The notes beneath the pieces were generated by a model. It did not search any database. It was not told the DNA's origin and saw only the letters and a list, made by a program, of their open reading frames with translations. Of a stretch of 64,000 nt of DNA, positions 19,657 to 64,000 are shown piece by piece. The position numbers and the translations under genes are program-made. Positions within the stretch are counted from its first letter, which is position 1. Every line of letters begins with the position of its first letter. Source of the DNA: Thermoanaerobaculia bacterium (GTDB lineage Bacteria; Acidobacteriota; Thermoanaerobaculia; Multivoradales; J023); assembly GCA_030431255.1 (NCBI GenBank), contig JAUIJL010000006.1:155850-219849 (forward strand), written 5' to 3'.

Positions 19657-19674
19657 GGGTCGCGAAGCATGGAT

Positions 19675-32367: not shown

Positions 32368-32383
32368 CGTTTGCTCCTCGGCA

Positions 32384-33532: not shown

Positions 33533-33542
33533 CTCGACCTCC

Positions 33543-34235: not shown

Positions 34236-34303
34236 GCTCGTATCTCCCCTATCGCCTGATGATCGGCTTCCGCCGCTGATTGCTCTCTCCAATCCGTAAA
34301 TCT

Positions 34304-42161: not shown

Positions 42162-42169
42162 ACCCTGAT

Positions 42170-43069
42170 CTATCCCTTGGATTGGATCGGCGGTGCGCCG
42201 TCACCCCGAATGTCCGGTCGGGTCGTGGGAGATGGGGGAGCGTTCAGATCGCCGCCGCCACCGCCCGGATTGTTGGGGTTCGGTTTCTGTTGCTTCGGCT
42301 CGCTCGATGGCTGGGGCGTTTGGGGGACCACCCCTTCGGGCCAATTACCCGTGATCTCCCAGGCCAAAAACGGCGTCAGCAACGACGGATTCGCGGGTCC
42401 ACCCTGCTTTTGGGTGGCGTAGAGCTCGACCGTGAACTGCCATTCGTTGAGATTTTCTTTTCCCAGAAATCGCAAGACCGACTCCTCGGACATCGCCGCG
42501 TAAACACCCCGGATCTGCATGTTTGAAGGGGGTGCGCCGAAGGTCTCCTCGGGGTCGGCCGAGAGAATGGTGCCGGGCGCCTCACCACCTCGCCCTTGGT
42601 CGAGCTCGTCATCCTCACCGAAACCATCGTCTTCGCCGAAGCCGCCACCCAGCTCCTGCGGCTGACCGGGCTGCCCCTGTTGACCTGGCTGACCTGGCTG
42701 ACCGGGCCGCAGCCCCGCCGGCACCAATCCCCAGCGGCCGTCCTCGCGCATGGGGTTTTCCCACAGCCGCCGGATACATCGAGGCTCGACCTCGATCAAC
42801 TCCTTGAGCTGGTTCGGATATCGGTTGTAGCGGGCCTGAAAAACCCGGATCGCCTCGGCGTATTGCATGCCGCGGAAGATCAGCTCCGCCTCTTTATCCC
42901 GTTGGATTTGATGGCTCCACACCGGCAAGCTGGACGCCACCCAGATGTTGAGCAGGGTCACCGCCACCGTCAGCACCACCAAGTTGTAGGCCCGCCGGCT
43001 CCCTGGTGCACGAAACGACAAGTCCGAGACGCGGCGTCTCAAACGCGTCAGGCGGCCCTGCGGCGTCAT
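42170..43069 (-). CDS. Putative type II secretion minor component (GspK-like?) with Gln/Pro/Gly-rich C-terminus
   Basis: Start ATG 43069 overlaps the upstream pseudopilin stop (ATGA). N-terminal single TM ([19 protein letters not shown]), then a periplasmic domain. Placement after pseudopilins suggests GspK/minor pseudopilin. Weak. Confidence 0.35.
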
Positions 43070-43085
43070 CCCGTCACCCACGACG

Positions 43086-43553
43086 TCACCACTCGGAGTA
43101 GGGCTCGCCTTCGAGGGAGCTTTGGGTCGACTTGGAGTAGACGTCGATGATGCCCGCGGCCGCGCCACCGTCGATGAAGTCCGATTCGACCGCCCCTTCT
43201 TCGGCGCCTTCCTGATCGTAGACCAAGCCCCAATCCTCCGATTCCATGATCGGATCGATGGGCACGTTGCGCAGATAACCCTCCTCGACCAGCGCGTCGA
43301 GGGACGGCGGATAGACCCCTTTGTCGCCATAGTGCTGATCGATCACCTCGCGCAGAGTGCGCAGATTCGTTTTCAGCACCGCTTCTTTGGCCCGGCGTGG
43401 GGTGTTGATCATGTTCGGCATGGCGATCGCCGCCAAAATGCCGATGATCGAGATGACGATGATCAGCTCCAAGAGGGTAAATCCTCGGCGACGCGATGCG
43501 ACGTTTTGGCTGGGCGCCGGCACCAAAGAGCTGGGGTGGGGATTGGGAATCAT
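43086..43553 (-). CDS. gspG: Type II secretion major pseudopilin (GspG-like) / type IV pilin-like protein
   Basis: Prepilin leader ending ...RRRG|FTLLELIIVISIIGILAAIA (class III signal, Glu+5), then NTPRRAKEAV. Start ATG 43553. The overlapping ORF 43066..43710 in another frame is rejected. Confidence 0.75.
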   Translation of the reverse strand: MIPNPHPSSLVPAPSQNVASRRRGFTLLELIIVISIIGILAAIAMPNMINTPRRAKEAVLKTNLRTLREVIDQHYGDKGVYPPSLDALVEEGYLRNVPIDPIMESEDWGLVYDQEGAEEGAVESDFIDGGAAAGIIDVYSKSTQSSLEGEPYSEW

Positions 43554-43576
43554 GGGAATACCTTTTCGCTCGCGGC

Positions 43577-44062
43577 TCACCACTCGGAGTAGGGGATGTC
43601 GTTGAGACCGATGCCGCTCGACAGGGAGTAGACGTCGTATACGTTCTCTCCTCCCCACGAGCTGGCGTCGAAATCGTCTTGATAGCTGCGCAAGCCCCAT
43701 TCCGCTTCACCGGTCATGGGATCGATCGGAATCCGACGCAAGAACCTTTGGTTTTTGTCGATCTGGCCTACCAGCTCGACCCCTTCGACCAAGATTTCGA
43801 GCTCGGCGGGATAACCCTCGGTGCCGAGCTCCACCGGTAGAAGCCCGGCGTCGCTGAAGCGCTTGTAGTCGTCGATAGCGTTGCGCATTTGGCGCAGAGC
43901 TTTTCGCAGCTCGATTTCCTTCTGGCGCCGGACGGTAAATCTAGCGACCGGGAAGACCGTCAAGGAAAGTATCGAGAGCAGGGTGCAGACCACCAACAGC
44001 TCCGTCATGCTATAACCCGCCATCGCGCGACGCTTGCGAGTCATTTGATTCAAGACGGTCAT
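43577..44062 (-). CDS. Pseudopilin / type IV pilin-like protein (second copy)
   Basis: ...AMAG|YSMTELLVVCTLLSILSLTV is a prepilin N-terminal methylation motif. Start uncertain (ATG 44062 or 44044). Confidence 0.65.
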   Translation of the reverse strand: MTVLNQMTRKRRAMAGYSMTELLVVCTLLSILSLTVFPVARFTVRRQKEIELRKALRQMRNAIDDYKRFSDAGLLPVELGTEGYPAELEILVEGVELVGQIDKNQRFLRRIPIDPMTGEAEWGLRSYQDDFDASSWGGENVYDVYSLSSGIGLNDIPYSEW

Positions 44063-44197
44063 AGCTTGGGTCCTAGGCTCATGGAACGGATGGTGAAGAA
44101 CAGATGCCGGCTGCCGGCGCACTGTATTTGCCGGAGCAAAGGGCGGCCGCGGCCGCCCTTTGCTTTCAGTCCTTTTACGTAATCGGGCCCCGGAGCG

Positions 44198-46126
44198 TTA
44201 GTTCTCTTCCTCGTCGTCACTCTTCTTGAACGGATCGTCGAAACCGGACGGCGCCAAGTCCACCCCTTGGGGGGCTTCCTCGACCGGCTCCTCAGAGCCC
44301 TCGTCACCGGCGTCTTGGAGACCTCGGGGAAGAGAGCGTAGGCGCTCACGCAAACGCTCGCGGACTCGGGTGCGGGCATCGGCATCGCCGTCGAACGGAC
44401 CTTCGACATCCGACTCGACCCGCGGGCTACCGCCCCGGAAGGTGATGTTGCTTTCGGTGCCGACCCAGATGGGCAGCAGGTCGTTGCGCTCGATGGACGC
44501 CCGACGGATCACGTGCGGGGTCAAGGTGAGCACGATGTCGGTCCGGCGACGCTCGTTGGAGACGTTGGTGAAAAGGCGGCCGAGCACCGGAATATCCGAA
44601 AGGCCCGGAATGCCCGACTCCGATTGGGATTCCTCGGCGCGGATCAAACCGGCGAGGAAATTGGTCTCGCCGTCGCGCAGGCGGATATTGGACTCGATGG
44701 TTCGGGTTCCGATCACCGGCTGCTGCTGACCGCCGGAGCCGGTGACGAACGAGGTGATGTCGGACACCTCGACCTTCACCTTGAGGGAGACCTCTTGGTT
44801 GTGGTGAACCCGCGGCTCGAGCTCAATCTTGATGCCGACCTCTTGGTATTGAAAGGAGGTCACCGGGACGATGTTGCCGCCCACCGTATTCGAGGTGTTG
44901 AAGGTGGTGGTAGGAATCGGCACCCGATCACCGATCACCAACGAAGCCTTCTCGCCCTCGGTGATGCGCAGCTTCGGCTGGGCCAACGCTTGGGCGTCGC
45001 CGGCGCTTTTCAGGAAATCGAAAAGGAAGCTAGGCACGGTGAGCACCCAGTTGTTCTGATTCAGATACTGCAGGTCGGAGATGCGCAGGGGCACATTCTC
45101 ACCACCGAGGTCGAGGCTCGAGCTGATGCTGTTCTCCGACAGGCTCAAACCCAGATCCTGCAATTTGTTGGTGTTGATCTGCAGCAGCTCGACGTCGACC
45201 ACCACCTCGGCCTTGGCCTTGTCGTTGGCCAGGATGATCTGCTCGGCGACCTTCACCTTGTCGGCGGTGTCGCGCAACACGATGGCGTTGAGCTGCTCGT
45301 TGGCGGCCACGTGCTTGGCACCGATCAAGCTGCGCACCATGGTCATCACGTCCTTCACCTCGGCGTTGTCGAGGAAGAAGGTCTGGATGACTTGGTCTTC
45401 GTAGTTGCGACGATTCTGCGGTGTGTCGTCGGCGATGATGATCGAGTGCTCGTCCAACACCTTGTAGAAGTGGCCGACGGTGCGCATCAGGATTTCCAGG
45501 CCACCTTGAGCGGTCACTTCCTTGAGCTCGATGGAGATCTCTTGGTCCTTCAGCTTGGGATCGAAGAGCACATTGACGCCGAACGCCTTGCCCAACGCCC
45601 GGTAGATATCCATCACCGACGCGGGCTTGGAGAAGATCAAATCGATGGGGTCGTCGGAGCGCGGGTTGAGGATCGGCGGCTGCGCCCGCGCGCCTTCCAC
45701 CCCCTCCTTCATCTCCGCGATGGTCTGGATGCCCTCTCCGCCTTCGGCCAGGGCTTTCATCTCGTCGACCACCCGGCCGAGCTCGGCCTCGGCAAATTGA
45801 TTCGTGGGGTCGAGCTCAATGGCTTGGCGATATTCCACCAAAGCCCGCTCCAGGACACCGGCGTTGTGGAATTTCTTGCCCCTCTGGACGTGCTTTTGCG
45901 AAGCCTGGATCTTGGCCCGCATCAACGCGGCGCGATAGGCGATGTTGTCCGGGTCCTGACGAACCGCCTCCAGGTATCTGAGGACCGCTTCGTCCCAATC
46001 TCCGGTCTGCTCCGCGGCTTGGGCCTGGCGGAAATGGCCTTGGGTGGCACAGCCCGAGATAAGGACCGCCATCAATAGTGCCGAAAGTGCGCCGATCCAC
46101 GGCCGCACCGGTCGTGCGTTTCGCAT
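44198..46126 (-). CDS. gspD: Secretin (GspD/PilQ family) with N-terminal lipoprotein signal and TPR module
   Basis: Signal LLMAVLISGC (lipobox). TPR-like AVLRYLEAVRQDPDNIAYRAALMRAKIQ...ERALVEYRQAIELDPTNQF. N-domains, then C-terminal secretin domain (...VLTLTPHVIR). Start ATG 46126. Confidence 0.8.
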   Translation of the reverse strand: MRNARPVRPWIGALSALLMAVLISGCATQGHFRQAQAAEQTGDWDEAVLRYLEAVRQDPDNIAYRAALMRAKIQASQKHVQRGKKFHNAGVLERALVEYRQAIELDPTNQFAEAELGRVVDEMKALAEGGEGIQTIAEMKEGVEGARAQPPILNPRSDDPIDLIFSKPASVMDIYRALGKAFGVNVLFDPKLKDQEISIELKEVTAQGGLEILMRTVGHFYKVLDEHSIIIADDTPQNRRNYEDQVIQTFFLDNAEVKDVMTMVRSLIGAKHVAANEQLNAIVLRDTADKVKVAEQIILANDKAKAEVVVDVELLQINTNKLQDLGLSLSENSISSSLDLGGENVPLRISDLQYLNQNNWVLTVPSFLFDFLKSAGDAQALAQPKLRITEGEKASLVIGDRVPIPTTTFNTSNTVGGNIVPVTSFQYQEVGIKIELEPRVHHNQEVSLKVKVEVSDITSFVTGSGGQQQPVIGTRTIESNIRLRDGETNFLAGLIRAEESQSESGIPGLSDIPVLGRLFTNVSNERRRTDIVLTLTPHVIRRASIERNDLLPIWVGTESNITFRGGSPRVESDVEGPFDGDADARTRVRERLRERLRSLPRGLQDAGDEGSEEPVEEAPQGVDLAPSGFDDPFKKSDDEEEN

Positions 46127-46173
46127 GCTTCTCAATCTCCTCGCTCCCTCGAGCGAATCCAAGGGACCCACGA

Positions 46174-46758
46174 TCAGCGCTCGCCGATCTCGATTCGGGT
46201 CGTTTCGTCTTCTGGAAAATCGACGAAACGAAATTCCACCCACTGAAGGCCTATTTCGTTGACGATGAATTGATCCTTGATCACGTCCTCGTGCAACGCA
46301 TTGATGATCTCTTTGCCGTCTATCAACACCGCGATTCGGCGATCCTCAGGGCCGAAAATGCCGAGCAGGTCCAGATCCACCGGCGGCGGTCGACGAACCG
46401 GCGGCCCCGGATCCACCACCGGCGGCGGAGGGGGAGGGGGCACATACGGCGGAGGAGGGGGCGGTGGGGGCGGTGCCACCCGACGTTGACCGTAGCGGAA
46501 AATATTCCGGTTCGGCTCGTAGGTGGCAGCCTCGGCGTTCAGGTCTTCCAGCTTGACCATCACCACGGGTCTTTTGGTGATTCGCTTGGTTTTGGCCACC
46601 CTCTTACTGGCTCTCGATTGCCCAGCCTTCTCACTGGTCCAACCCTTCATCGCCGGCAAGACGAACCGCCAACCGACCACCAGAAGCAAAGCGATCAGCA
46701 GAAGATTGAGCATCTTCTTTTGTTGCTCGGGGCTGCCCAGCCCGCCGCCTTGTCTCAT
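46174..46758 (-). CDS. PilP/GspC-like secretin-interacting protein (TM + poly-Pro linker + C-terminal beta domain)
   Basis: TM LLLIALLLVVGW, linker APPPPPPPPPYVPPPPPPP, C-terminal RIAVLIDGKEIINALHEDVIKDQFIVNEI (PilP/HR-domain-like). Sits immediately upstream of the secretin. Confidence 0.45.
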   Translation of the reverse strand: MRQGGGLGSPEQQKKMLNLLLIALLLVVGWRFVLPAMKGWTSEKAGQSRASKRVAKTKRITKRPVVMVKLEDLNAEAATYEPNRNIFRYGQRRVAPPPPPPPPPYVPPPPPPPVVDPGPPVRRPPPVDLDLLGIFGPEDRRIAVLIDGKEIINALHEDVIKDQFIVNEIGLQWVEFRFVDFPEDETTRIEIGER

Positions 46759-47558
46759 GTTTCTTCGTCCTCTTCAGGCGTCGACCCGTTGTCGCCTTCC
46801 GGCAAACCTTCTGTCGACAGCTCTTGGCTCGGCAAAGCTCGTGTCGATTCTTCTACGCTGCCCGGGCTCTCCGCATCTAGGCTTTCTTCGCCCTCGGGAT
46901 CTTCTTCGTCGTCGATGTCTACCGACAGCTCCATCGTCGGATCGAGGGCGGTGCCTTCGGTGAGCACCTCGTTGGCCAGCTCCAGGGATTCGGCATCGTT
47001 CTGGGCAAACATGGTGGAGGCACCGAAGCGCAATTGCAGGCGCGCGTCGCGATCCCCTTTGCCACCGGCCAGCTTCACCGATTCCAGGGTCAGAAATTGA
47101 TCGGTCAGCTCCAGAAAGTTGATGAACGTCCGGAGCTGGTCGTAGGTGCCGTCGACGGAAAAGCGAATTCCCAGTCGATTGAGCTCGTAGGCGTCGATCT
47201 CACTACCCGGGTAGGAAAAGCTCCGCGGATCCAAGCCGGCTCGCCGAGCGAGGGTTCGAATTTCCCGAAGCACCCGCGTGAATCGCTCACTTTCAGTGGC
47301 GAAGTGATCTCTGTACAAGGTGCCGACCTGGCGGTCCTGCTCGGCGACTCGTTGCAGGAATTCCTCTGCTCGCTCCACCTCCGAGCGGTGGCTTTCGAGC
47401 CTCGTCGCCCGATTGCCGTAGCGATCTTCCAACTTGTCCAGCTGGCCCGCATAGGTCGCCTGGTAGTAGAAGATCCCACCCAGGCAGAGTGAGACGAAGG
47501 CCGCGGGGAGCCACCAGACCCAGGAGCGCTGACGCCAAGCCGCGAATTTATCGTTCAT
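46755..47558 (-). CDS. PilO/GspM-like inner-membrane alignment protein
   Basis: Start ATG 47558 overlaps the upstream stop. N-terminal TM (WVWWLPAAFVSLCLGGIFYY), a coiled coil, then a domain. Acidic C-terminal tail. Confidence 0.5.
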   Translation of the reverse strand: MNDKFAAWRQRSWVWWLPAAFVSLCLGGIFYYQATYAGQLDKLEDRYGNRATRLESHRSEVERAEEFLQRVAEQDRQVGTLYRDHFATESERFTRVLREIRTLARRAGLDPRSFSYPGSEIDAYELNRLGIRFSVDGTYDQLRTFINFLELTDQFLTLESVKLAGGKGDRDARLQLRFGASTMFAQNDAESLELANEVLTEGTALDPTMELSVDIDDEEDPEGEESLDAESPGSVEESTRALPSQELSTEGLPEGDNGSTPEEDEET

Positions 47559-48985
47559 GACGTCACCTCCGTCCCGCGCTCGCTGGGCTCGGAATAGCTC
47601 GGCTCGGAAATATCCGGCGTCCAGAGCAAGAAGTCCGGTATCCAACGGTCGAAGAGACTGCCCTGCAACCTAGGAGACGAGGATGCCGCGGGCAAAGTGG
47701 GTGAAGGCGTAGTGGCACCCGAACGGGTGGTGGATGGCCGTGCCCCGGGTCGCGCGGGGCTCGGCGTGGTTTGCGGAACCACGTTTTGCTGTTGCAGCCT
47801 CCTTTGGGCCCGCTCACGTGCTCGGGCTTCTTTCTCAGCCTGCTCTCGCGCCCTGGCGTCTTCGATGCTCGACGTGCTCGAGCCGGCTCCGGGAGCCACG
47901 GACACCGTCGATCGTGGGCGAGTGACCGAGCGAGACCCCCTCGAGCGGCTATGTCGACGTCGGGTAGCTTCCTCGACCTCGGACTCGCCTTCTTCCGGTG
48001 GAAAGCCCGTGCTCGCCTGGGGCTCTGCCCGCCTCACGTCGCGAGAGCTCCGGCCGCGATCAGCCCTCGACGAGGTCCTTGACCGCGAGTCGGTTGTGAC
48101 CGGAGATCCCGTGGGTCGCAAGGTCGAGGGTTGCCCTTCGATCTCGGGTACGGGTTCTTCGATCACGGAGACCATCTCGGGACGAGCTCCCGCGTCGGTG
48201 CGATCGGAGGCGCTGCCGGACGCGAGGGCGAGCTGCTCGGCGCCGGGGTCACCTTCCTCCGGCGGCGGAGCGTTTCGTTTCGGCGTGAGATAAACCGTTT
48301 TGATGTTGAAGCTCAGCTTGCCCGTCTTGTCCTTGCTCTCGCGAGACAAGGTGGGATCCAAGAAAGACGGGCTTTGGTAGAGCAAATCGACAAACTCAAA
48401 GAGGGCTTCGTCGTTTTTGGCGTAACCGCGCAAGGTCAGAGTCACGCGATCTCCGGAGAAGTACGACTCTTCGTCCTGCTCGTCCTCGAGCTCATCACTG
48501 TCGTCGATGTCGTCGGCGTCGCTCTCACCCCGCGCCCGAGCTCGCGCCTCGCGGGCGGTGAGGGCTCGACTGGGCCTCGCCGACTCGGAAATCGCCGGCT
48601 GCTTGGCCAAACGCAGGGAGGGCTGCACCGACCCCAAATACACGTCGATCGGTAGCACTTTCTCAAGATCGTCGAAAAGCGCGCTCCAAGGAAAGGTGCG
48701 ATTGTGGATCAACGAGTTCAGATAGCGAGCTTTGCGGTTGCGGTCACCGAGATTCAGGCTCCTCAGCTCTTTCCACAGCTCCGCCAAGCGATCTTCTTCC
48801 TGCTGGATTTGGCGGTTGAGGGATTGCAAACGACCCTTGCCTTTCTCGGACCCGCTGAAGTGACTGGCATAGAGCCAGATATTCACCAACAACAGGAGCG
48901 CACCCAAGACCCACAAACAGGCCGCGACCCGCACCACCGGCCGACGATTGATAAACGGTCGGCGTGAAAGATTGACCACCTTCAC
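47555..48985 (-). CDS. PilN-like protein (GspL periplasmic-part homolog) with long disordered Ser/Arg/Glu-rich C-terminus
   Basis: N-terminus NLSRRPFINRRPVVRVAACLWVLGALLLL resembles the PilN INLLP...RR + TM. GTG start adjacent to the PilM-like stop. Confidence 0.5.
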   Translation of the reverse strand: MKVVNLSRRPFINRRPVVRVAACLWVLGALLLLVNIWLYASHFSGSEKGKGRLQSLNRQIQQEEDRLAELWKELRSLNLGDRNRKARYLNSLIHNRTFPWSALFDDLEKVLPIDVYLGSVQPSLRLAKQPAISESARPSRALTAREARARARGESDADDIDDSDELEDEQDEESYFSGDRVTLTLRGYAKNDEALFEFVDLLYQSPSFLDPTLSRESKDKTGKLSFNIKTVYLTPKRNAPPPEEGDPGAEQLALASGSASDRTDAGARPEMVSVIEEPVPEIEGQPSTLRPTGSPVTTDSRSRTSSRADRGRSSRDVRRAEPQASTGFPPEEGESEVEEATRRRHSRSRGSRSVTRPRSTVSVAPGAGSSTSSIEDARAREQAEKEARARERAQRRLQQQNVVPQTTPSPARPGARPSTTRSGATTPSPTLPAASSSPRLQGSLFDRWIPDFLLWTPDISEPSYSEPSERGTEVTS

Positions 48986-48986
48986 G

Positions 48987-49961
48987 TCAATACACCTCTA
49001 AGCTCGCTGCGCCGAGCAATGGCGCCGTTCTCACCCAAGAAACACCGGCTCGACCCCGGGTCAGCTCAAAATGCTCGAATCTCAGGGGCTCCGGAGTGAG
49101 ATCCAGCTCCCCTTGGAGCCATCCCAACCACTGCTCTTCAAGCTCTTCCGGAGCGGCCAAGAACGCCCGATGGAGGGGCGTGTCCGGGAAGTGACGCCCA
49201 AGAAAGCTGATCGTCATCCGCAGATCTCTGAGCACGGAGTCGCCGTAGGCGCCACCGTCGGCGAACGCTTTGTAGCGATAAAGCAACGGCTCGCCGGAGC
49301 GGAAGAAGCTGAGGGAGTAGGAGTCGTCGAAGACGCTGACCAGGGCCGCCAGCTCGTCCGGTGCCACCGTATGCTCCACGCTCGACAATAGGGCCAGGGT
49401 GGTGTTGGTGATGTTGCCCAATTGAACGCCGGCTTGCTCGAAAGCGTTTTCGAGCTGGGTCATCAACAGCTCGATGGCGAAGCCCAACAGCAGACGCATG
49501 GGCTCTTCTTGGTTGGGGAACGGGGTCACCTGCATGGCCGAGATGCGCAGATCGTCGACCGAGAAGGGCACCAAGCGCTTGAGCTTCCAGGCCAAGATTT
49601 CGTGACGATCCGCCGGATTGCGGGGCAAATCGGAGATCTCGGAGAACACCAGGCGCATCCAGGTGTCGGGCAGCACGAGGGACGCCACGGGCACGGGCGC
49701 CCCGACGTCGGCCACCAAGGCTTCGAGGCTTTTTTGGAAGCCCTTGATGTCGCGCATGGGGCCTCCGAGCACCCCGTTGACGAAGGTTTCCTCGGGCAGC
49801 TCGACGCTTTTCTCGACGTCGAAAGCATAGCCTTGCGGACCCAAGTGGAACGCGCCGTAACGCAGCTCGTTTTGGGACACGGAGAAAACGTGCGGGGGAG
49901 ACGCGATCGGGTCGAAACCCAGGGCTCGCTCAATCCACGAAGGTAACTTTATTGATTTCAC
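48987..49961 (-). CDS. PilM-like / GspL-cytoplasmic-domain-like actin-fold protein
   Basis: ELPEETFVNG...LVLPDTWMRLVFSEISDLPRNPADRHEILAWKLKRLVPFSVDDL is colinear with the PilM N-terminal region. GTG start; overlaps the GspE stop by ~32 nt. Confidence 0.5.
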   Translation of the reverse strand: MKSIKLPSWIERALGFDPIASPPHVFSVSQNELRYGAFHLGPQGYAFDVEKSVELPEETFVNGVLGGPMRDIKGFQKSLEALVADVGAPVPVASLVLPDTWMRLVFSEISDLPRNPADRHEILAWKLKRLVPFSVDDLRISAMQVTPFPNQEEPMRLLLGFAIELLMTQLENAFEQAGVQLGNITNTTLALLSSVEHTVAPDELAALVSVFDDSYSLSFFRSGEPLLYRYKAFADGGAYGDSVLRDLRMTISFLGRHFPDTPLHRAFLAAPEELEEQWLGWLQGELDLTPEPLRFEHFELTRGRAGVSWVRTAPLLGAASLEVY

Positions 49962-51654
49962 GAAGCGTCGTGACTCCCTGGAAAACTTTCTCGAGGGCGG
50001 ATTCCCGCAAGAAGCTCATGCCTTCTTCCTTGGCGGCTCGTCGAATTTCGGCGGCCGGGCGGCGCGACAAAATGAGCTCACGGATCGGATCGGAAAGATG
50101 CAAAAGCTCGGTGACGGCGAGTCGTCCGTGGTAACCCGCACCGTTGCATTCGATGCACCCCTTGCCTTCGTAGAACGTGGTGTCCTCATAGGCGTCGGGA
50201 TCCAAACCGCTGTAATCCAACAGCTCACGGGAAAGATGAACCGGAGCTTTGCAGTGCTCGCAGATCCGGCGAACGAGCCGTTGGGCCAAAACGCAGTTGA
50301 GCGCGGAGACGAAATTGTACAGATCCACGTTCATATTGAGAAATCGGCCCAGGACGTCGACCACGTTGTTGGCGTGAACGGTAGTAAAGACCAAGTGTCC
50401 GGTCAACGCGGATTGAATGGCGATCTGGGCGGTTTCCTCGTCTCGAATCTCACCGATCATCACCTTGTCCGGATCGTGGCGCAGGATCGAGCGCAGACCC
50501 CTGGCAAATGTCAGGCCCTTCTTTTCGTTCACCGGAATCTGGGTGATGCCTTTGAGCTGATACTCCACCGGATCCTCAATGGTGATGATCTTGTCTTCCG
50601 GGGAGTTGATCTCGTTCAAACAAGCGTAGAGGGTGGTGGTTTTACCGGAACCCGTGGGGCCCGTCACCAACACCATGCCGTAGGGCTCGCGAATCGATTT
50701 GTTCAGCTTGCGCTGGGTTTCTTCGTCGATGCCCAGAACGTTGAGGCTCAGGTTGCGAAACTCCTTGTTCATCGACTCTTTGTCGAGCACACGGATCACG
50801 CAGTCTTCGCCGTGGACCGTCGGCAGGATGGAGACACGGAAATCAATGGTTCGGCCCCGAAGACGCAGCTTGAAGCGCCCGTCCTGGGGCACGCGCTTTT
50901 CAGAGATGTCGAGCTCGGACATCACCTTGATGCGGGAGATGATGGTCTGGTGATGTTTTTTGTCGATCGCTTCCATGGCCTGGAAGAGGGCGCCGTCGAT
51001 GCGGTACTTGATGTTGACCTCGGTGTCGCCGGTTTCAACGTGGATGTCGCTGGCGCGGCGCTCGATGGCGTTGAAGAGGGTGGAATCCACCAAGCGGATG
51101 ATGGGATTCTGCTCTTCGGCGGTGATGCTTTTGATCGAGACTTCTTCGTCGTCGTCACCGTGGACCAAGGTGATCTTGAAGTCTTCCGTGGCCTCTTCAA
51201 GGGCCCGCTGCGCGCTGTCGGACTTTTCCAACAGCTCGCGGATCGCCGACACCGCGCCGACTTTGACCTCCACCGGCTGGGCGAGCAGCATTTCCAGCTC
51301 GTCGATCTTGCGCACATCCGTGGGATCCGCCATCACCACGGTCATCCGTCCGTTGCCCTGAGATTCCGGCACGAATTGATAACGCAACATGACGTCGAAG
51401 GGCACCCGGCGGAAGAGATCGCTTTGAATGCGGAAATCGAAGACGTCGACGTATTCGAGCCCGTAGGCCTCGGCGATTTCCTGCGCCTTTTCCTCTTCCT
51501 CCCGGCGCTGCTCGGCGGACAGGCGCCCGGAGCCGCCGCTATCCACGGCTGCCGCGGTCGCGGTGTCGTTTTCGACCACCGCTTCCAGCACGTTGGTCAA
51601 CGGCTCGTCGGCGCTCGGATCGATTTCGATCGGGTTTTCGCTCTGAAATTCCAT
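49930..51654 (-). CDS. gspE: Type II secretion / type IV pilus assembly ATPase (GspE/PilB family)
   Basis: Walker A VLVTGPTGSGKTTTLYACL, Asp box, Walker B VMIGEIRDEETAQIAIQSALTGHLVFTTVHAN, tetracysteine CEHCK...CIECNGAGYHGR. Confidence 0.9.
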   Translation of the reverse strand: MEFQSENPIEIDPSADEPLTNVLEAVVENDTATAAAVDSGGSGRLSAEQRREEEEKAQEIAEAYGLEYVDVFDFRIQSDLFRRVPFDVMLRYQFVPESQGNGRMTVVMADPTDVRKIDELEMLLAQPVEVKVGAVSAIRELLEKSDSAQRALEEATEDFKITLVHGDDDEEVSIKSITAEEQNPIIRLVDSTLFNAIERRASDIHVETGDTEVNIKYRIDGALFQAMEAIDKKHHQTIISRIKVMSELDISEKRVPQDGRFKLRLRGRTIDFRVSILPTVHGEDCVIRVLDKESMNKEFRNLSLNVLGIDEETQRKLNKSIREPYGMVLVTGPTGSGKTTTLYACLNEINSPEDKIITIEDPVEYQLKGITQIPVNEKKGLTFARGLRSILRHDPDKVMIGEIRDEETAQIAIQSALTGHLVFTTVHANNVVDVLGRFLNMNVDLYNFVSALNCVLAQRLVRRICEHCKAPVHLSRELLDYSGLDPDAYEDTTFYEGKGCIECNGAGYHGRLAVTELLHLSDPIRELILSRRPAAEIRRAAKEEGMSFLRESALEKVFQGVTTLREINKVTFVD

Positions 51655-51682
51655 GCCTAGAGATTCTCCTCGGACCCCGGGC

Positions 51683-52897
51683 TTAGGCCCTGACCTGGCT
51701 TAGGGCGCCGAACATGGGCATATAAATCGACACCAAGAGAATACCGATCAGCAGACCCATGATGATCAACATCACCGGCTCGATCAACGCCAATAGACGC
51801 TCAACCCGAGTCTCCACATGCTCGTCGAAATAGTCGGCTACGGACGACAACATTTCGTCTAATGAGCCCGTGGCCTCTCCGACTTTGATCATGTCGATCG
51901 ACATGTGTGGGAAGACCTCGGTCTGCTCCAGCGCTTCGTTGAAGCTGGTGCCTTGGCGGACCCTTTCGATCGCCGGACCGATCTGCCCGCTGATGTGCTT
52001 ATTACCGATCGCGGTATTGGCGGTTTCGAAGGCCGACACGAAGGGAATACCGCCGGCGATCAAGGTCGACAAGGAACGGCAAAACTCGGACAACGAAAAG
52101 TAGAGGAAGATCGTGCCCAGCAGGGGGATGTACAGCTTCCAGCGATCGGCGGTCGCGCGTCCCGAGGGGCTCCGGCTCCAAATTCGGAAGGCGATACCTC
52201 CGATCAACAAGGCCCCGAAGGTGATCGCATAATAATCTCTCAAGAAAGAAGAGACGCTCAGGGTCACCTTGGTAATGGTCGGCAGCTCGGCCTCCAAATC
52301 GCCGTAGAACTGCGCGAACATAGGCACCACGTAGATCGCCATCACGACCAACATGGCGATCGACAATAGGATCAGCACCGACGGATAAACCATGGCCGAC
52401 ACCACCCGCTTGCGGGCATCGATCACCAAGCGCAAATAGCGGATAAACCGACGGATCACCTGCTCGAGCTCGCCGGATCGCTCGCCGGCCTTGAGGGTCG
52501 AGGCGTAGAGCGGCGGAAACATATCTCCGAAGCTGGCAAAGGCGTCCGACAGCTCCTCACCGGACTTCACCTTGTCGCGAATCTCGGTCAGGACCTCCTT
52601 CAGACCGGGATCCTCCATACGTTCCAGCATCATTTCCAGGCCCTGAAGCAGCGGCAGACCCGCGCGCAGCAGGGCCGCCAGCTCTTGGTTGAACGCCAAG
52701 AAAGCCGGCATGCTCATCTTTTTGCGACGGTTCGCGAACGGCAGCTGGAGCTGCATCAGGGGCGACCGAGGCTTTACCTCGAAGATGTGGCAGCCTTGCC
52801 TCTCCAGCTCTCGGCGCACAGCGCCGACATCGGTACCTTGTTGAACCTCGGTAAGAACCCGGCCGTCCGGGGTTCCGTAGCGACAAACGAATTGCAT
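51683..52897 (-). CDS. gspF: Type II secretion / T4P inner-membrane platform protein (GspF/PilC family)
   Basis: 404 aa with two GspF repeats (…LLRAGLPLLQGLEMM… and …LSTLIAGGIPFVSAFETA…) and 3 TM. Confidence 0.85.
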   Translation of the reverse strand: MQFVCRYGTPDGRVLTEVQQGTDVGAVRRELERQGCHIFEVKPRSPLMQLQLPFANRRKKMSMPAFLAFNQELAALLRAGLPLLQGLEMMLERMEDPGLKEVLTEIRDKVKSGEELSDAFASFGDMFPPLYASTLKAGERSGELEQVIRRFIRYLRLVIDARKRVVSAMVYPSVLILLSIAMLVVMAIYVVPMFAQFYGDLEAELPTITKVTLSVSSFLRDYYAITFGALLIGGIAFRIWSRSPSGRATADRWKLYIPLLGTIFLYFSLSEFCRSLSTLIAGGIPFVSAFETANTAIGNKHISGQIGPAIERVRQGTSFNEALEQTEVFPHMSIDMIKVGEATGSLDEMLSSVADYFDEHVETRVERLLALIEPVMLIIMGLLIGILLVSIYMPMFGALSQVRA

Positions 52898-52980
52898 GGT
52901 CTTAGGGCTCGGTCGAAGTCATCACGTGGAGGTCATTACAAAAAAGGAATCAGGTCTCGGATTTCTGCGGATTCTCAACC

Positions 52981-53781
52981 CTAGCGAGCGGGCGCCGGAT
53001 CAGCGGGAACGGGCTCCCGATGACACGAGATGGCGATCATCAGCGCCTCTTGCTTGGAATCGTCTTGGGCCAATACCAGCGTGAACGGCTTCTCCAACCA
53101 TAGGTTGAGGGTGGCATGAAAAAGCTGACGCGGGGGCAATCGCCGTCCCTTGTTGGTGGCCGGAATCTTCTTGACGATTTTGAAGCCCTCGAGCTTCAAC
53201 CGACGCCCCGCCATCACCGAGCCGAGCTTGAAGCTGACGTCGTAGCGCTCTCCGAGGGAATAGGTGACCTCATCCCCCTCCTTAGAGCTGACGCCCGCCT
53301 TGGCCAGAACCTGATAGTCCTCATAGCGGAGAAGGTTTCGGAGCCGATTCTCCAAATCTTCCGGCAGCTCGGCCACCGCCTGCTCTGCGGAGACGCTCGG
53401 CGGAGAGATGATGCTGCGGGTTTTCGGCCCCGCCTTCACCACCTGAATGTCGAGTCTCAGGTTCTCGGGCGGACGATCGAATTCGGCCAAGGTCGCTTTG
53501 ACCCTGGAGAGAGCGGCGACCGTATCCCGAAATACCAGGGTGTTGCTACCCGGTTGCTCCTCAATGGTGCCCCGATTCGTCAATTGAGGACGAATCAGCG
53601 CCATCGCATCCTTGGCGGAGCGATGCTGGAGGGTGTGAGCATAGACCTTGAGCACCTCGTTCGGAGCTTCGGCCGATGCCGGCCCTGCGCTCAAAAGCGA
53701 CAAGATGCAGAGGAGCCAAAGGCCGAGCGCTGAAGTGGCTCGGCCTCGGGATGCCGTCGACTGGGCTCGCTGGACGTTCAT
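52981..53781 (-). CDS. Secreted protein with secretin-N/STN-like domain (possible GspC/GspN-type accessory)
   Basis: Signal peptide LGLWLLCILSLLSAGPASAEA. LKVYAHTLQHRSAKDAMALIRPQL...NTLVFRDTVAALSRVKATLAEFD resembles the small secretin-N/STN fold. ATG 53781 chosen; ORF extends to 53892. Confidence 0.35.
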   Translation of the reverse strand: MNVQRAQSTASRGRATSALGLWLLCILSLLSAGPASAEAPNEVLKVYAHTLQHRSAKDAMALIRPQLTNRGTIEEQPGSNTLVFRDTVAALSRVKATLAEFDRPPENLRLDIQVVKAGPKTRSIISPPSVSAEQAVAELPEDLENRLRNLLRYEDYQVLAKAGVSSKEGDEVTYSLGERYDVSFKLGSVMAGRRLKLEGFKIVKKIPATNKGRRLPPRQLFHATLNLWLEKPFTLVLAQDDSKQEALMIAISCHREPVPADPAPAR

Positions 53782-53878
53782 GGGCTCAGGGATTCTCTTC
53801 CTTCGTTCTTGGATAGCTCGGAGATCATTCGGATTCTCTTCCGGAAAGCGGGGCGCCAAGGCCCCGCGGGCTCGACGA

Positions 53879-54496
53879 TCAGGCATCCCCACTACTGGGT
53901 GAAAGGCTGCTTGGTGAAAGGCCGTCCGGCGAAGGGTTGCCCGTCGGAAGGAGGTCCGACGAAAGGTCGCTGTCGGCGGCCATCACCACGACCAGAGACA
54001 CTCCGTCGTCTTCGATTTGCATCAGCGGGCCCATCTCCGGGGAAACGTCCTCGACCAACGGCAGCTGGGCGATCTCACTCGGTACCGGGGCAGGTCGCTG
54101 GGAGGCTTGCTCCCAAGTCGGAACGTCCGCCGAGTCCATGGTGATTCCGGTCAAACCGGCGACGGATACCGCCAGGGCCAGTAGCGCGGCGATCGACCAA
54201 TTTCGTGCCCGATCCGCGCTGCCGTCCACTTGGTCCCGCAGCCCGTCGGCCCGGCGCATAGACGCTTGGGTCCGCCTCATGGAAGCCACCGCATCTTTCA
54301 TCGCCTCGATATCCGCGGGTCCGGTTTCCACTTCCGGCAAGCCGTGGAAGAGCATCAACGGATCCGCGTCCACGGCAGCGTCCCACGCTTCGGGATCGTC
54401 GTCCATGGAGGCCAGAGCGGCCAGCCATTCGTCGGCATCCCGCTCGGGGTGACGGTCGTGCTCCGCCGTCAGGCGTTGCCAATCGATTTCGCTCAT
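53879..54496 (-). CDS. Putative anti-sigma factor (single-pass membrane protein)
   Basis: Start overlaps the ECF sigma stop (ATGA). Acidic cytoplasmic N-domain, one TM (WSIAALLALAVSVAGL), then a Pro/Ser-rich periplasmic tail. The position after the ECF sigma gene is the main evidence. Confidence 0.45.
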   Translation of the reverse strand: MSEIDWQRLTAEHDRHPERDADEWLAALASMDDDPEAWDAAVDADPLMLFHGLPEVETGPADIEAMKDAVASMRRTQASMRRADGLRDQVDGSADRARNWSIAALLALAVSVAGLTGITMDSADVPTWEQASQRPAPVPSEIAQLPLVEDVSPEMGPLMQIEDDGVSLVVVMAADSDLSSDLLPTGNPSPDGLSPSSLSPSSGDA

Positions 54497-55275
54497 CGAG
54501 AGCCCTCCGCCCGGCGTCCGCGGGCATATTCCGGATATTTTTCGACCAGCTTTTGGCGCAGCTGCTTGCGCGCGTTGAAAAGATGATTGCGCACGGTGGA
54601 TTCTCGGCAGCCGACGATCTCCGACACCTCTTTCGAGGGCAGGCCCTCGACTTCGCGCAGCAAAAAGACCATGCGCTGTTTTTCGGTCAGGTCGGCGGAA
54701 AGCTCTTGGAAGATGTCCATGATCTCGCGCTCGTGCAGATTGGCGCGATCCCGGCGAGCGCGATCCTCAAAGCCGGTTTGGATGTGCAGGCGGACCGGAT
54801 CGGTGTTGCGTTGCTTGCTCTGGCGCGACCTCAGCTGGTCGATGGCCAGGTTGGTGGCGATCCGATAGATCCACGTGTTCGGGCTCCACCGATCGTCGAA
54901 TCGATCCCGGTGCTCCCACAGACGAAAAAAGGTGATCTGCACGATGTCGCGCGCCTCTTCGGCGTCGTGGAGGATTCGGTTCACCGTGTTGACGAGGGGT
55001 CCGGTCTTGCGCTCGATCAGCTCGTCAAGGGCCAGCTCGTCGTCGTTCTTCAGGGCCCAGAGCAGCTCCTTGTCGGTGGCCTCCCGCAGCTCGACCCGGT
55101 GTCGGTTGACGGAGAAGGCCAGCTTGGGGCCGGTCGGCGTCGAGCCTGTTGTCTGTGCTGCGGTTAAGGTGGACATGGTTTGCTCTCTGGGTGCGTCGAC
55201 CTCCGCCCTGGGCGGATCGTCGTGGGTCTCGGGCGGGTCTTTGGTCGAGACCCCGTCGTCTGTTGTGGATGCCAT
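54493..55275 (-). CDS. RNA polymerase sigma-70 factor, ECF subfamily
   Basis: Region 2 (ITFFRLWEHRDRFDDRWSPNTWIYRIATNLAIDQLR) and region 4 (LPSKEVSEIVGCRESTVRNHLFNARKQLR). Start either 55275 or ATG 55176. Confidence 0.8.
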   Translation of the reverse strand: MASTTDDGVSTKDPPETHDDPPRAEVDAPREQTMSTLTAAQTTGSTPTGPKLAFSVNRHRVELREATDKELLWALKNDDELALDELIERKTGPLVNTVNRILHDAEEARDIVQITFFRLWEHRDRFDDRWSPNTWIYRIATNLAIDQLRSRQSKQRNTDPVRLHIQTGFEDRARRDRANLHEREIMDIFQELSADLTEKQRMVFLLREVEGLPSKEVSEIVGCRESTVRNHLFNARKQLRQKLVEKYPEYARGRRAEGSR

Positions 55276-55392
55276 GGATCTTGGCCTGCTTTCGTGGGAT
55301 GTATACGGTCACACCGAGAGGAGCGTCTAAAGACAATCGATTTTTTCCGGAATCGATCGACGACGACCGGCAGGCATTATACTCCCGGCTTC

Positions 55393-63991: not shown

Positions 63992-64000
63992 GGCGGCGGC

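Follow-up and report, generated by a model that had tools for sequence, protein, structure and literature searches.

The possession of separate PilM, PilN and PilO proteins is a hallmark of type IVa pili (T4aP). T4aP genes are commonly scattered in genomes (PMC6668835). For type II secretion systems (T2SS), regulation by an ECF sigma factor has a precedent in the VreAIR–Hxc system of Pseudomonas, in which overexpression of VreI induces the adjacent hxc genes (PMC2729926). That system is the nearest analogue of the locus described here, a 13.6-kb operon on the minus strand (positions 41718–55275) of a 64-kb stretch of DNA from a Thermoanaerobaculia bacterium. The whole stretch is hereafter called the window, and the operon was delineated in it by family searches and open reading frame (ORF) calls. 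Judging from the sequences, we consider it moderately probable that this is a T4aP/T2SS hybrid operon switched by its ECF sigma factor, with a non-retractile secretion pseudopilus.

The genes named in an initial annotation of the window were recovered on one strand and in the claimed order, bar small corrections to their coordinates (Table 1), and its list of components was borne out by family matches and, for PilM, by fold. Starting from the divergent kdtA, the order is sigma factor, anti-sigma factor, SecN, GspF, GspE, PilM, PilN, PilO, PilP, secretin, pseudopilins 1 and 2, pilin-like protein 3 and dut. An ORF at 43066–43710, taken earlier for the second pseudopilin, was rejected as lying in the wrong frame (the true gene is 43086–43553), and a 386-aa 'GspK-like' ORF was shortened to 299 aa, its true start being at ~43069.

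Table 1. Features of the operon and its upstream spacer (window coordinates; arrows mark cleavage sites).
Feature	Position	Strand	Evidence and remarks
dUTPase (dut)	41718..42161	-	PF00692 116.5 bits; conserved last operon gene
Pilin-like protein 3, 299 aa	42170..43069	-	prepilin-like hydrophobic N-terminus without Glu5
Pseudopilin 2	43086..43553	-	PF07963, TIGR02532; cleavage RRG↓FTLLEL; mature 131 aa
Pseudopilin 1	43577..44062	-	N_methyl and weak GspG matches; cleavage G↓YSMTELL; mature 145 aa
GC-rich hairpin, 15-bp	44133..44166	.	secretin–pseudopilin spacer; sense direction without U-tract
Secretin, lipoprotein, 642 aa	44198..46126	-	PF00263 142.9 bits; TPR_11, TPR_2, PF03958
PilP/GspC-like connector candidate, 194 aa	46174..46758	-	position, topology and composition only
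PilO/GspM-like, 267 aa	46755..47558	-	PF04350 PilO 25.3 bits (cut-off 22)
PilN, 476 aa	47555..48985	-	PF05137 30.1 bits (cut-off 22.8); TM 20-38
Divergent PilM, actin-like, cytoplasmic, 324 aa	48987..49961	-	AlphaFold model fold
PilB/GspE-type assembly ATPase, 574 aa	49930..51654	-	PF00437 (T2SSE), PF05157 (MshEN)
GspF/PilC inner-membrane platform, 404 aa	51683..52897	-	PF00482 x2 (T2SSF x2)
SecN, 266 aa	52981..53781	-	signal peptide, one Secretin_N (N3-like), secretin-like beta domain of ~8 strands
Anti-sigma factor candidate, 205 aa	53879..54496	-	single-pass, TM 102-120; ATGA overlap with sigma stop
ECF (group IV) sigma factor, 260 aa	54493..55275	-	PF04542, PF08281, PF07638
Predicted ECF-type promoter	55302..55329	-	-35 TAGACG (55329-55324), 16-nt spacer, -10 CGTATA (55307-55302)
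Conserved AGTATAAT box	55376..55383	-	kdtA/sigma divergent spacer, 9 nt from kdtA ATG (55393, +)

Many 4-nt overlaps had been claimed between these genes; just three ATGA overlaps are clear in the window, at the sigma/anti-sigma, PilN/PilO and PilO/PilP junctions. The GspE and PilM genes overlap by 32 nt, those for PilM and PilN are 1 nt apart, and the remaining junctions are gaps of 8–135 nt. The larger of these, between SecN and gspF (83 nt), between the anti-sigma gene and the MNVQ start of SecN (97 nt) and between the secretin and pseudopilin 1 (135 nt), could leave room for other promoters. In many relatives the junctions leave scant or no space for a promoter: sigma and anti-sigma genes overlap by 4 nt in 17 of 23 relatives and those for PilM and PilN in 24 of 62, the 32-nt GspE/PilM overlap is found at 67 of 69 loci, the SecN–GspF spacing does not exceed 10 nt in 24 of 62 (median 19), and dut shares 4 nt with the gene before it in 12 of the 30 measured. 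Hairpins similar to the one in the secretin–pseudopilin spacer occur in relatives from the marine clade (L005, L008, L011, L021 and L022).

The full gene order is kept in ~80 species genomes of the class Thermoanaerobaculia (Acidobacteriota), and synteny persists in relatives with PilM identity as low as 36%. Chance falls far short of explaining the arrangement, which is found again at essentially all related loci with sufficient flanking sequence; dut is syntenic in all such loci. In a survey of the origin of the locus, covering 212 to 735 PilM-like homologues and 125 species genomes, every homologue or genome bearing a taxon name belonged to Acidobacteriota or Thermoanaerobaculia, save one MAG (L035) labelled Deltaproteobacteria. 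The region is probably a single operon of the class Thermoanaerobaculia, inherited vertically.

The operon would begin with a regulatory module of three genes and go on to encode a complete type IV filament machine that mixes T4aP and T2SS traits. Assembly would be powered by the PilB/GspE-type ATPase together with the GspF/PilC platform. The ATPase, which carries a Walker A motif (GPTGSGKT) and two CxxC motifs, scores slightly higher with the PilB model TIGR02538 (548 bits) than with the GspE model TIGR02533 (533 bits), both below cut-off; its nearest solved structures are the PilB proteins of Geobacter and Myxococcus (436 bits for Geobacter PilB, 370 for Vibrio GspE). The platform prefers the GspF model TIGR02120 (317 bits, cut-off 424) to the PilC models (274 and 262), and the secretin prefers the GspD model TIGR02517 (158 bits) to PilQ (101), again both below cut-off. 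As all T2SS and T4aP equivalog models stay below their cut-offs, the system has to be left as an unclassified intermediate. The earlier reading is upheld in part; its designation as type II secretion is tentative, the best-scoring models being mixed.

The PilM-like protein has no Pfam or NCBIfam match. Its profile matches Thermus PilM at E 0.003, and its AF2 model (pLDDT 85) retrieved the PilM structures 5eox, 3jc8 and 2ych as best Foldseek hits (E ~1e-18), the match to GspL-cyto being weaker (E ~1e-9). PilM would bind the N-terminus of PilN, where the motif VNLSRRPF is conserved in all loci. PilN does end, as had been noticed, in a long disordered tail (241 aa, periplasmic; S 15%, R 14%, P 12%, E 10%), which is confined to the marine subclade, given a median PilN length of 248 aa in the family. 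The PilO/GspM-like protein has an acidic C-terminal tail and also scores 23.3 bits with the GspM model NF040576, below cut-off. In the connector candidate, which is kept in relatives, a TM anchor at the N-terminus is followed by a poly-Pro linker and then by a beta-rich C-terminal domain (~70 aa); the protein returned no family or PDB match, profile search included. The proposed use of PilMNOP instead of GspL/M/C thus stands for the separate PilM (fold) and for PilN and PilO (Pfam), PilP being assigned by position and topology only; neither GspH/I/J nor a GspC PDZ domain was found. PilN, PilO and the PilP/GspC-like protein would together span the periplasm up to the TPR lipoprotein secretin (lipobox LISG↓C), in which N-terminal TPRs are followed by an N0/FecR_C-like region, one Secretin_N domain, as in PilQ, the secretin domain and an acidic tail.

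Separate PilM, PilN and PilO, the closer fit of the PilM model to PilM than to GspL, the PilB-leaning ATPase and the single Secretin_N domain would also suit a genuine type IVa-like pilus serving adhesion, twitching or DNA uptake, with piliation controlled by the ECF sigma factor and with genes elsewhere for PilT, for the prepilin peptidase and perhaps for additional pilins. We regard such a pilus as possible but doubtful. No PilT, PilA or PilD was found in the 64-kb window, and the absence of a retraction ATPase noted initially extends to the related loci: PilT is missing within ±10 kb in all 80, and a second ATPase in all but one genome. Since T4aP genes are commonly scattered, the lack of PilT at the locus is weak evidence (PMC6668835). 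A pilus is further disfavoured by the encoding of the whole machine at a single locus, which leans towards T2SS, by the higher scores of the GspF and GspD models than of PilC and PilQ, and by a search that found neither PilY1 nor a minor-pilin set. In at least one relative, a separate PilB-like ATPase and a PilW_C pilin adjoin the locus, suggesting that a distinct T4P coexists with this system there.

The pilins themselves also argue against a pilus, being short, devoid of Cys and similar to GspG alone beyond the N-terminal helix. Both GspG-like pseudopilins of the initial annotation are present, and both end in PYSEW. Pseudopilin 1 (start at 44062 or 44044) has the same mature length in ~49 loci. 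Pseudopilin 2, likely the major subunit, is kept in ~47 loci, lacks Cys and scores 53 bits with the GspG model TIGR01710 (cut-off 88.85); past the N-terminal helix, its profile aligns with GspG structures alone among those in the PDB. Pilin-like protein 3 has no family matches. Its leader (A↓YNLVVL in the window, G↓YNLV.L or G↓FTLVAL in orthologues) precedes a Gly/Pro/Gln-rich insert, and the label 'GspK-like' fits the prepilin-like leader without Glu5, whereas nothing indicates a GspK fold; the protein could serve as a tip or initiator subunit. The filament would accordingly be built of two short GspG-like pseudopilins, with pilin-like protein 3 probably priming or capping it. Most likely, a short non-retractile pseudopilus would push folded proteins through the secretin in a T2SS-like manner, a retractile pilus being less likely.

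The sigma factor, which matches Sigma70_r2, r4_2 and TIGR02937 (106.7 bits, cut-off 42.9) and has a low-complexity N-terminal extension of ~65 aa, keeps its syntenic position at nearly every related locus, and throughout the class the sigma/anti-sigma pair stays in synteny with the machine. The predicted promoter ends ~26 nt before the sigma start codon (ATG). TAGACG-N16-CGTA has a single exact match in the whole window; when one mismatch is allowed, there are 3 window matches against 1.2 expected, and the window site alone is statistically unremarkable. Among related loci, TAGAC[G/A]-N16-CGTA with an invariant 16-nt spacer lies upstream of sigma in 52 of 62 (window included), and 53 of its 54 occurrences in 1.31 Mb, both strands counted, are upstream of sigma. 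A relaxed motif matched at 59 sites before sigma and at 21 before gspE, compared with 9 on the entire antisense strand. The variant before gspE is found in 21–22 of 72 loci (~30%) and is nearly absent elsewhere in 1.27 Mb; the window has the sigma-proximal copy only and none before gspE. The suggested coupling of the machine to an ECF sigma/anti-sigma pair is thus upheld by class-wide synteny, a conserved sigma promoter, tight junctions and the gspE promoter copies, and these comparisons make predicted control of the machine by sigma through co-transcription well supported.

The anti-sigma candidate has one TM segment and a conserved periplasmic C-terminal beta segment. In RsrA-type proteins, a ZAS Cys/His set senses thiol oxidation. 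The window protein, in which the Zn ligands are lost, has no Pfam (including zf-HC2), NCBIfam or PDB match; of 61 orthologues, at least 35 have C...H-x3-C-x2-C, and the N-terminal domain is derived from a ZAS type. The next gene, annotated initially as encoding a secreted protein, encodes instead a truncated secretin paralogue of ~250 aa, SecN, with a Secretin_N domain and a secretin-like fold (an alternative start lies upstream at 53892). SecN represents a novel 'mini-secretin' protein.

The ZAS-like Cys/His set in most anti-sigma orthologues could indicate that sigma, anti-sigma and SecN form a general envelope-stress or redox module with its regulon elsewhere, the machine being expressed mainly from constitutive promoters. 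The window spacers of 83–135 nt would be compatible with this, as would two genomes (L061 and L064) in which the three genes are absent together as a block and the machine is kept. Upstream of the ECF promoter a TATAAT box is conserved, and this box and the housekeeping dut at the 3' end of the operon also argue for some sigma-independent expression. We nevertheless find a general module improbable, given that the three genes remain joined to the machine in L003 despite a changed upstream neighbour, that the SecN–gspF junction is so often tight, that the promoter motif recurs before gspE and almost nowhere else, and that the third gene is itself a secretin paralogue.

Within the secretin encoded by the same cluster, SecN aligns with N3 and with the beginning of the secretin domain. 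With its ring-building N-domain and secretin-like beta domain, it might be a structural outer-membrane part (such as an additional ring in the periplasm, a co-secretin or a factor assisting assembly of the TPR secretin) rather than a sensor, the anti-sigma factor then responding to something else; as the main secretin has just one Secretin_N domain, a ring supplied in trans is conceivable. A purely structural SecN appears unlikely to us, since it is lost with sigma and anti-sigma in the two genomes that retain an intact machine, and in two organisms the anti-sigma factor carries the SecN beta domain at its periplasmic end, as a fusion (anti-sigma–TM–SecN beta-domain proteins P0199 and P0200, 71% identical to each other). 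Because of this joint loss and these fusions, SecN is tied to the regulator and less to the machine; its genetic link is to the sigma/anti-sigma pair. That SecN interacts with the anti-sigma factor is suggested only by their linkage, their joint loss and the fusions. Structural and sensor roles are not mutually exclusive.

In the ECF-switched operon that we favour, sigma, preceded by its own ECF-type promoter and translationally coupled to the single-pass anti-sigma factor, would be kept inactive by the latter. A periplasmic or outer-membrane cue, sensed by the anti-sigma C-terminal segment together with SecN, would release sigma, which could then raise transcription of its own gene and, by read-through, of the whole machine; in ~30% of relatives the gspE-proximal promoter copy would add to read-through. 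Farther upstream, in the spacer between sigma and kdtA, AGTATA is conserved in 55 of 62 loci, and the complete AGTATAAT box in 41.

The minus strand of the 64-kb window carries an unbroken gene array, extending from 55275 to 41718, in which genes for a type IV filament machine (GspF through the third pilin-like protein, pp3) follow those for an ECF sigma factor, a candidate anti-sigma factor and a mini-secretin, SecN. The gene array and the family matches confirm the initial annotation in that a cluster of genes resembling those of type IVa pili (T4aP) and type II secretion systems (T2SS) lies behind an ECF sigma gene; its interpretation as a T4aP-like T2SS co-transcribed with the sigma/anti-sigma pair is partly supported and is extended below. 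Some details had to be revised. The third product, listed as a secreted protein, is secretin-related; an ORF placed at 43066–43710 was in the wrong frame; and the ORF described as GspK-like is not 386 aa long, its true start being near 43069. The '4-nt overlaps' said to be numerous were found as ATGA at three junctions (sigma/anti-sigma, PilN/PilO and PilO/PilP-like), the remaining genes being separated by spacers of 1–135 nt, apart from the 32-nt overlap of the GspE and PilM genes.

Genes of the minus-strand array and the predicted promoter of its first gene (window coordinates).
Feature	Position	Strand	Match or remark
Predicted ECF-type promoter of sigma	-35 55329–55324, -10 55307–55302	-	TAGACG-N16-CGTA
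ECF sigma	54493–55275	-	Sigma70_r2/r4_2; TIGR02937, 106.7 bits (cut-off 42.9)
Single-pass membrane protein (anti-sigma candidate)	53879–54496	-	no family match
SecN, Secretin_N-domain protein	52981–53781	-	PF03958
GspF/PilC	51683–52897	-	T2SSF x2
PilB/GspE-type ATPase	49930–51654	-	T2SSE + MshEN
PilM-like protein	48987–49961	-	no family match; fold only
PilN	47555–48985	-	PF05137, 30.1 bits (cut-off 22.8)
PilO	46755–47558	-	PF04350, 25.3 bits (cut-off 22)
PilP-like, Pro-rich, membrane-anchored	46174–46758	-	no family match
TPR-Secretin_N-Secretin lipoprotein	44198–46126	-	PF00263
pp1, prepilin-type protein	43577–44062	-	N_methyl
pp2, prepilin-type protein	43086–43553	-	N_methyl, TIGR02532
pp3, pilin-like protein	42170–43069	-	no family match
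dut (dUTPase)	41718–42161	-	PF00692

Homology or fold shows the machine to be a complete envelope-spanning type IV filament system. [quoted passage not shown] The model of the PilM-like protein (pLDDT 85) matched PilM of Pseudomonas, Myxococcus and Thermus at E ∼1e-18 (TM up to 0.70), compared with only ∼1e-9 for the cytoplasmic domain of GspL. The proposal that PilM, PilN and PilO take the place of GspL and GspM thus holds: PilM and PilN are products of separate genes, PilM being recognised by its fold and PilN and PilO by Pfam, while PilP was assigned from topology alone. In all loci PilN carries at its N-terminus a VNLxRRPF motif, which we take to be the counterpart of the PilM-binding INLLP peptide, and its long tail, noted earlier, measures 241 aa and is rich in S, R, P and E.

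Classification of the components with curated models gave a mixed picture, and none of them reached an equivalog cut-off. The ATPase scored 548 bits with the PilB model TIGR02538 (cut-off 676) and 533 with the GspE model TIGR02533 (cut-off 630), and among PDB sequences it matched Geobacter PilB (436 bits) better than Vibrio GspE (370 bits). For the platform protein the scores were 317 bits with GspF (TIGR02120, cut-off 424) and 274 with PilC, and for the secretin 158 bits with GspD (TIGR02517, cut-off 351) and 101 with PilQ (TIGR02515, cut-off 284). The prepilin-type proteins pp1 and pp2 are very uniform over ∼50 loci: they mature to 145 and ∼131 aa, respectively, and share a ...PY(S)EW C-terminus. 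The GspG model TIGR01710 gave 53 bits on pp2 (cut-off 88.85), and in the profile search of the PDB GspG structures were the only ones aligning with pp2 beyond the N-terminal helix. The GspE, GspF, GspD and GspG models were in each case the top match or close to it. The leader of the pp3 family is prepilin-like (G|YNLV.L or G|FTLVAL) and never contains Glu5, the absence of which sets apart the GspK-type tip subunits. The GspK-like designation of pp3 is upheld only as regards Glu5; a GspK domain was not detected in it. The three pilin-like genes are the only ones in the locus; GspI and GspJ had no match, and the sole GspH match (28.4 bits, cut-off 80) fell on the methylation motif of pp2. No GspC or PDZ match was obtained among the cluster proteins, and the GspM model NF040576 reached 23 bits against a cut-off of 60.

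The machine shares with the T4aP of Myxococcus, Pseudomonas and Thermus a separate actin-like PilM, bitopic PilN and PilO, a PilB-like ATPase with N-terminal MshEN and zinc-finger motifs, a PilC-like platform and a secretin with a single N3-type domain. It differs from them in that the secretin has no AMIN match and carries TPR repeats and a lipobox instead, the pilins are GspG-like and devoid of Cys, the minor-pilin/PilY1 set is absent, and all genes are in one operon. Furthermore, in agreement with the initial annotation, there is no PilT or PilU at the locus. A retraction ATPase was found neither in the 64-kb window nor in the ±10 kb around 80 related loci, and the remainder of the window contains neither a major pilin nor a prepilin peptidase gene. 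The only second ATPase this close to any of the 80 loci is a PilB-sized paralogue in one relative (L003/L009, ∼17768–20346). It is 38% identical to the ATPase of the window and is located, together with a PilW_C-type pilin, 1 kb beyond dut, so that in this relative the operon may coexist with a type IV pilus system of its own. With the canonical proteobacterial T2SS (GspC-O) the system has in common the single operon, the ATPase, GspF as the best platform model, a secretin nearer to GspD than to PilQ, GspG-like pseudopilins, a pilin lacking Glu5 as in GspK, and the absence of a retraction ATPase. Unlike that system, it possesses no fused GspL, no GspC PDZ domain and no recognisable GspH, GspI or GspJ, and all its scores lie under the TIGRFAM cut-offs. 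Judged by these searches, the system lacks defining features of both T4aP (PilT, AMIN) and T2SS (GspL/C/H/I/J). We lean slightly towards secretion rather than a pilus as its function. In L026 (13094–15661) and other soil-clade loci the secretin is 855 aa long and has an extra C-terminal beta-rich domain of ∼150 aa, cohesin-like by eye, which is missing from the secretin of the window.

[quoted passage not shown] T2SSE, two T2SSF domains, N_methyl/TIGR02532 pilins with G|FTLLEL and a Secretin domain were all found here, and on this domain content the system fits the generic category. A comparable ambiguity of classification, considered here at the superfamily level, is known for the 'T2SS' of Cytophaga hutchinsonii (Bacteroidetes), whose components group phylogenetically with those of T4aP and not with those of Gsp systems (PMC6668835; PMC5553014). 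That system belongs to a different phylum, and neither an ECF module nor a mini-secretin has been reported for it.

The distribution of the system was assessed from the PilM-like protein, for which 212 homologues were retrieved by a single-sequence search and 735 by a profile search with a broadened alignment (the best 120 matches were inspected); relatives were found in 125 species genomes. Among the matches listed, all relatives with a taxon name were from Acidobacteriota, Thermoanaerobaculia or 'Ca. Multivoradales', with the exception of L035, a MAG labelled as Deltaproteobacteria. When all 14 window proteins were compared by tblastn with 84 fetched loci, the order kdtA (divergent)-sigma-anti-sigma-SecN-GspF-GspE-PilM-PilN-PilO-PilP-like-secretin-pp1-pp2-pp3-dut was recovered in essentially every locus with sufficient flanking sequence, down to 36% PilM identity, and independent gene calls concurred. 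In L003 the upstream neighbour has changed and the sigma pair is still found with the machine. In L061 and L064 the sigma, anti-sigma and SecN genes are missing as a block and kdtA abuts gspF, which indicates that the three genes constitute one module. The dUTPase gene is the last of the operon in all related loci; for a housekeeping enzyme, this partnership is odd. No description of the system was found in the literature searched on T2SS in Thermoanaerobaculia or on ECF sigma factors with T2SS in Acidobacteria. From the genomes compared, it appears to be a class-wide variant, not described before, of kinds of system that are already known.

Is the machine under the control of the sigma factor? 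The latter has the features of ECF (group IV) sigma-70 factors, namely regions 2 and 4 only, an ATGA overlap with a downstream gene for a transmembrane protein, and a conserved predicted promoter. Two conserved elements were recognised in the spacer 5' of the sigma gene, which is also that of the divergent kdtA: the AGTATAAT box and, nearer to sigma, TAGAC[G/A]-N16-CGTA. The latter element is present in 52 of the 62 loci; its spacer is always 16 nt long and is not conserved in sequence. Such an architecture, the CGTA -10 above all, is typical of ECF promoters; that of Bacillus SigW is TGAAAC-N16-CGTATA. Of the 54 occurrences of the motif on both strands of 1.31 Mb of loci, 53 are upstream of sigma, which makes autoregulation of the sigma gene from this predicted promoter almost certain. 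In the window alone the motif is not significant (3 matches versus 1.2 expected, with one mismatch allowed), so that its weight derives only from conservation across the loci.

When the -10 element was loosened to CGT[AT], 59 sense-strand sites were found upstream of sigma, ∼13 at other sense-strand positions (apart from the GspF-GspE spacer) and 9 on the entire antisense strand. In the GspF-GspE spacer the relaxed motif occurs on the sense strand in 21–22 of 72 loci belonging to several subclades. This second copy, T[AG]GACG-N15-16-CGT[AT], immediately precedes gspE in ∼30% of the relatives (L011, L014, L015, L018, L033, L035–L037, L039, L044, L048, L049, L056, L060, L063, L066, L068, L071, L073, L077 and L079) and is lacking from the window, where the GspF-GspE spacer is only 28 nt long. 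No second good ECF-type promoter was found before gspF, gspE or the pilin genes of the window, and an ECF-like site inside pilO (46854–46879) is probably due to chance. A possible weak third promoter of this type is situated at the secretin stop codon (CTAACG 44201–44196, a 16-nt spacer and CGTAAA from 44179, minus strand). The corresponding layout, xxRACG-N16-CGTA, is seen in 9 marine-clade loci, although its conservation may be a coding effect, as the -35 overlaps codons of the acidic tail. It is followed by a 15-bp GC hairpin (44133–44166), which was considered as a terminator splitting the secretin from the pilins and rejected as a canonical one, since a U-tract is lacking in the sense direction and the hairpin is conserved only within the marine subclade.

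Junction statistics support co-transcription of the predicted operon. Overlaps of 4 nt were found between sigma and anti-sigma in 17 of 23 loci, between PilM and PilN in 24 of 62, and between pp3 and dut in 12 of the 30 relatives measured; the SecN and gspF genes are at most 10 nt apart in 24 of 62 (median 19 nt). In 67 of 69 related loci the PilM start codon lies 32 nt within the 3' end of the ATPase gene (49930–49961 in the window); an overlap so long and so strictly kept is unusual. In the window, spacers of 83–135 nt leave room for other promoters, and some sigma-independent expression is to be expected from the upstream TATAAT box and the presence of the housekeeping gene dut in the operon. 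The AGTATAAT box (window 55376–55383; in 55 of 62 related loci, from genomes of ∼62% G+C) is 8–11 nt from the start codon of kdtA (55393, plus strand, in the window). It could represent the -10 of a leaderless kdtA transcript (TATACT on the plus strand) or, alternatively, a housekeeping promoter directed towards the sigma operon. Taken together, the comparative evidence shows the machine genes to be the downstream part of a predicted operon whose first two genes are those of the autoregulated ECF sigma and of its anti-sigma, and we consider this regulatory link, taken on its own, to be quite probable.

The anti-sigma gene overlaps the sigma stop codon and encodes a protein with one transmembrane helix (residues 102–120). 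No match to it was found in Pfam or NCBIfam (even at E≤0.5) or in the profile search of PDB sequences. Its orthologues align well, and at least 35 of 61 display an N-terminal Cys followed by H-x3-C-x2-C, the ligand pattern of zinc-binding (ZAS) anti-sigma factors, whereas in the window protein and its closest relatives all four zinc ligands are gone. The family thus resembles RsrA, RslA and ChrR in the spacing of the ligands in most orthologues and in its position directly 3' of an ECF sigma gene, and differs from them in having a transmembrane helix and a short periplasmic segment conserved at the C-terminus (PLVE...ARVYQ...LSVVMIVDESLDV); PF13490 (zf-HC2) did not match any of the four orthologues tested, nor did PDB profiles. 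These alignments suggest that the family is probably ZAS-derived and that the window member has lost the zinc site.

The AlphaFold model of SecN (pLDDT 86) shows an N-domain of beta-alpha-beta-beta-alpha topology and, after it, a beta domain with approximately eight strands. Foldseek matched it to 31 full-length secretins with E-values of 2e-8 to 1.5e-5, and to isolated N-domains at ∼4e-3, while hhalign gave a weak alignment (E 0.005) of residues 47–204 with the secretin encoded in the cluster itself, covering its N3 domain and the beginning of its secretin domain. Judging from this model and these matches, SecN is probably a truncated secretin paralogue. Its family comprises 165 representatives at E≤1e-30, nearly all of 220–300 aa. 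In two proteins from different organisms, P0199 (L016 3722–4753) and P0200, which are 71% identical, a complete ZAS-type anti-sigma, with its transmembrane helix and periplasmic tail kept, is naturally fused to the SecN beta domain; the Secretin_N domain has been lost and a separate SecN gene is absent. The fusion and the joint loss of the trio both tie SecN to the anti-sigma and not to the machine.

The closest regulatory precedent appears to be PUMA3 (VreA-VreI-VreR), which adjoins the Hxc T2SS of Pseudomonas aeruginosa; overexpression of its ECF sigma induces the hxc genes, and VreA is a small receptor built of a Secretin/TonB-N-terminus-type domain (PMC2729926). In both cases the genes beside a T2SS-like machine encode a sigma factor of the ECF type, an anti-sigma that spans the membrane and a small periplasmic protein with a Secretin-type domain. 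However, the anti-sigma described here is probably ZAS-derived and that of PUMA3 FecR-like, a probable truncated secretin stands in place of a third protein of the STN+TolA/TonB-like type, and here the regulatory genes head the same operon. As neither FecR nor TonB-transducer domains are present, the likeness is one of analogy rather than homology. In the FecI-FecR-FecA system, a periplasmic or outer-membrane protein with a beta-alpha-beta domain signals through a single-pass anti-sigma to the ECF sigma, and an analogous logic may operate here; no FecR domain or TonB-dependent transducer was matched in the trio, the only FecR_C match being sub-threshold (19.2 bits versus 24.4) and in the main secretin.

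In the mechanism proposed, the C-terminal segment of the anti-sigma, together with SecN, would sense a signal from the periplasm or the outer membrane, release of sigma would raise expression of the machine, and the filament would be a short pseudopilus driving secretion. For this composite of machine, sigma control, sensing and secretion we have somewhat better than even confidence. A bolder reading, which we put forward tentatively and regard as rather doubtful, is that SecN serves the ZAS-derived anti-sigma as its sensing partner in the periplasm or outer membrane. The two would belong to a class-wide and undescribed cell-surface signalling route by which the machine, an evolutionary T4aP-T2SS intermediate, would report secretin or assembly state, or an external cue, to the autoregulated ECF sigma driving the operon of the machine. 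If the mini-secretin proved to be such a sensor, envelope-machine status would be coupled to transcription in a new way.

To our knowledge, nearly all that is known of T2SS and of type IV pili comes from Proteobacteria. The divergence of the two and the role of non-proteobacterial 'generic' systems are open questions (PMC6668835), for which a single-locus, class-conserved system with a T4aP alignment complex, GspG-like pseudopilins and no PilT nearby provides a useful intermediate. It also offers a defined regulatory circuit, with a sharply conserved predicted ECF promoter, a probably ZAS-derived anti-sigma and a new family of ∼250-aa mini-secretins, and would supply names for several 'hypothetical' families in hundreds of Acidobacteriota MAGs.

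Several other features of the window were recorded. The upstream sulfatase genes were considered as sources of secretion substrates and rejected, since the sulfatase domain mostly lies behind a long N-terminal region and the neighbouring genes are for glycosyltransferases and lipid modification; the cluster looks like one for envelope modification rather than exoenzymes. Between it and a MacB/FtsX-type ABC export operon (31204–35530) is an ORF of 326 aa (29897–30877, plus strand) whose product has an IS200-like Y1 transposase domain. A full-length tmRNA gene (Rfam RF00023, 156.9 bits) occupies 58858–59210 of the plus strand, and the ORFs listed there are spurious. The G+C content of 60001–64000 is 72–73%, versus 58–67% in the remaining window; a 1362-aa ORF with Calx-beta and lactonase beta-propeller domains (59903–63991, minus strand, continuing past the window end; GC3 0.91) may be a foreign or strongly biased gene.
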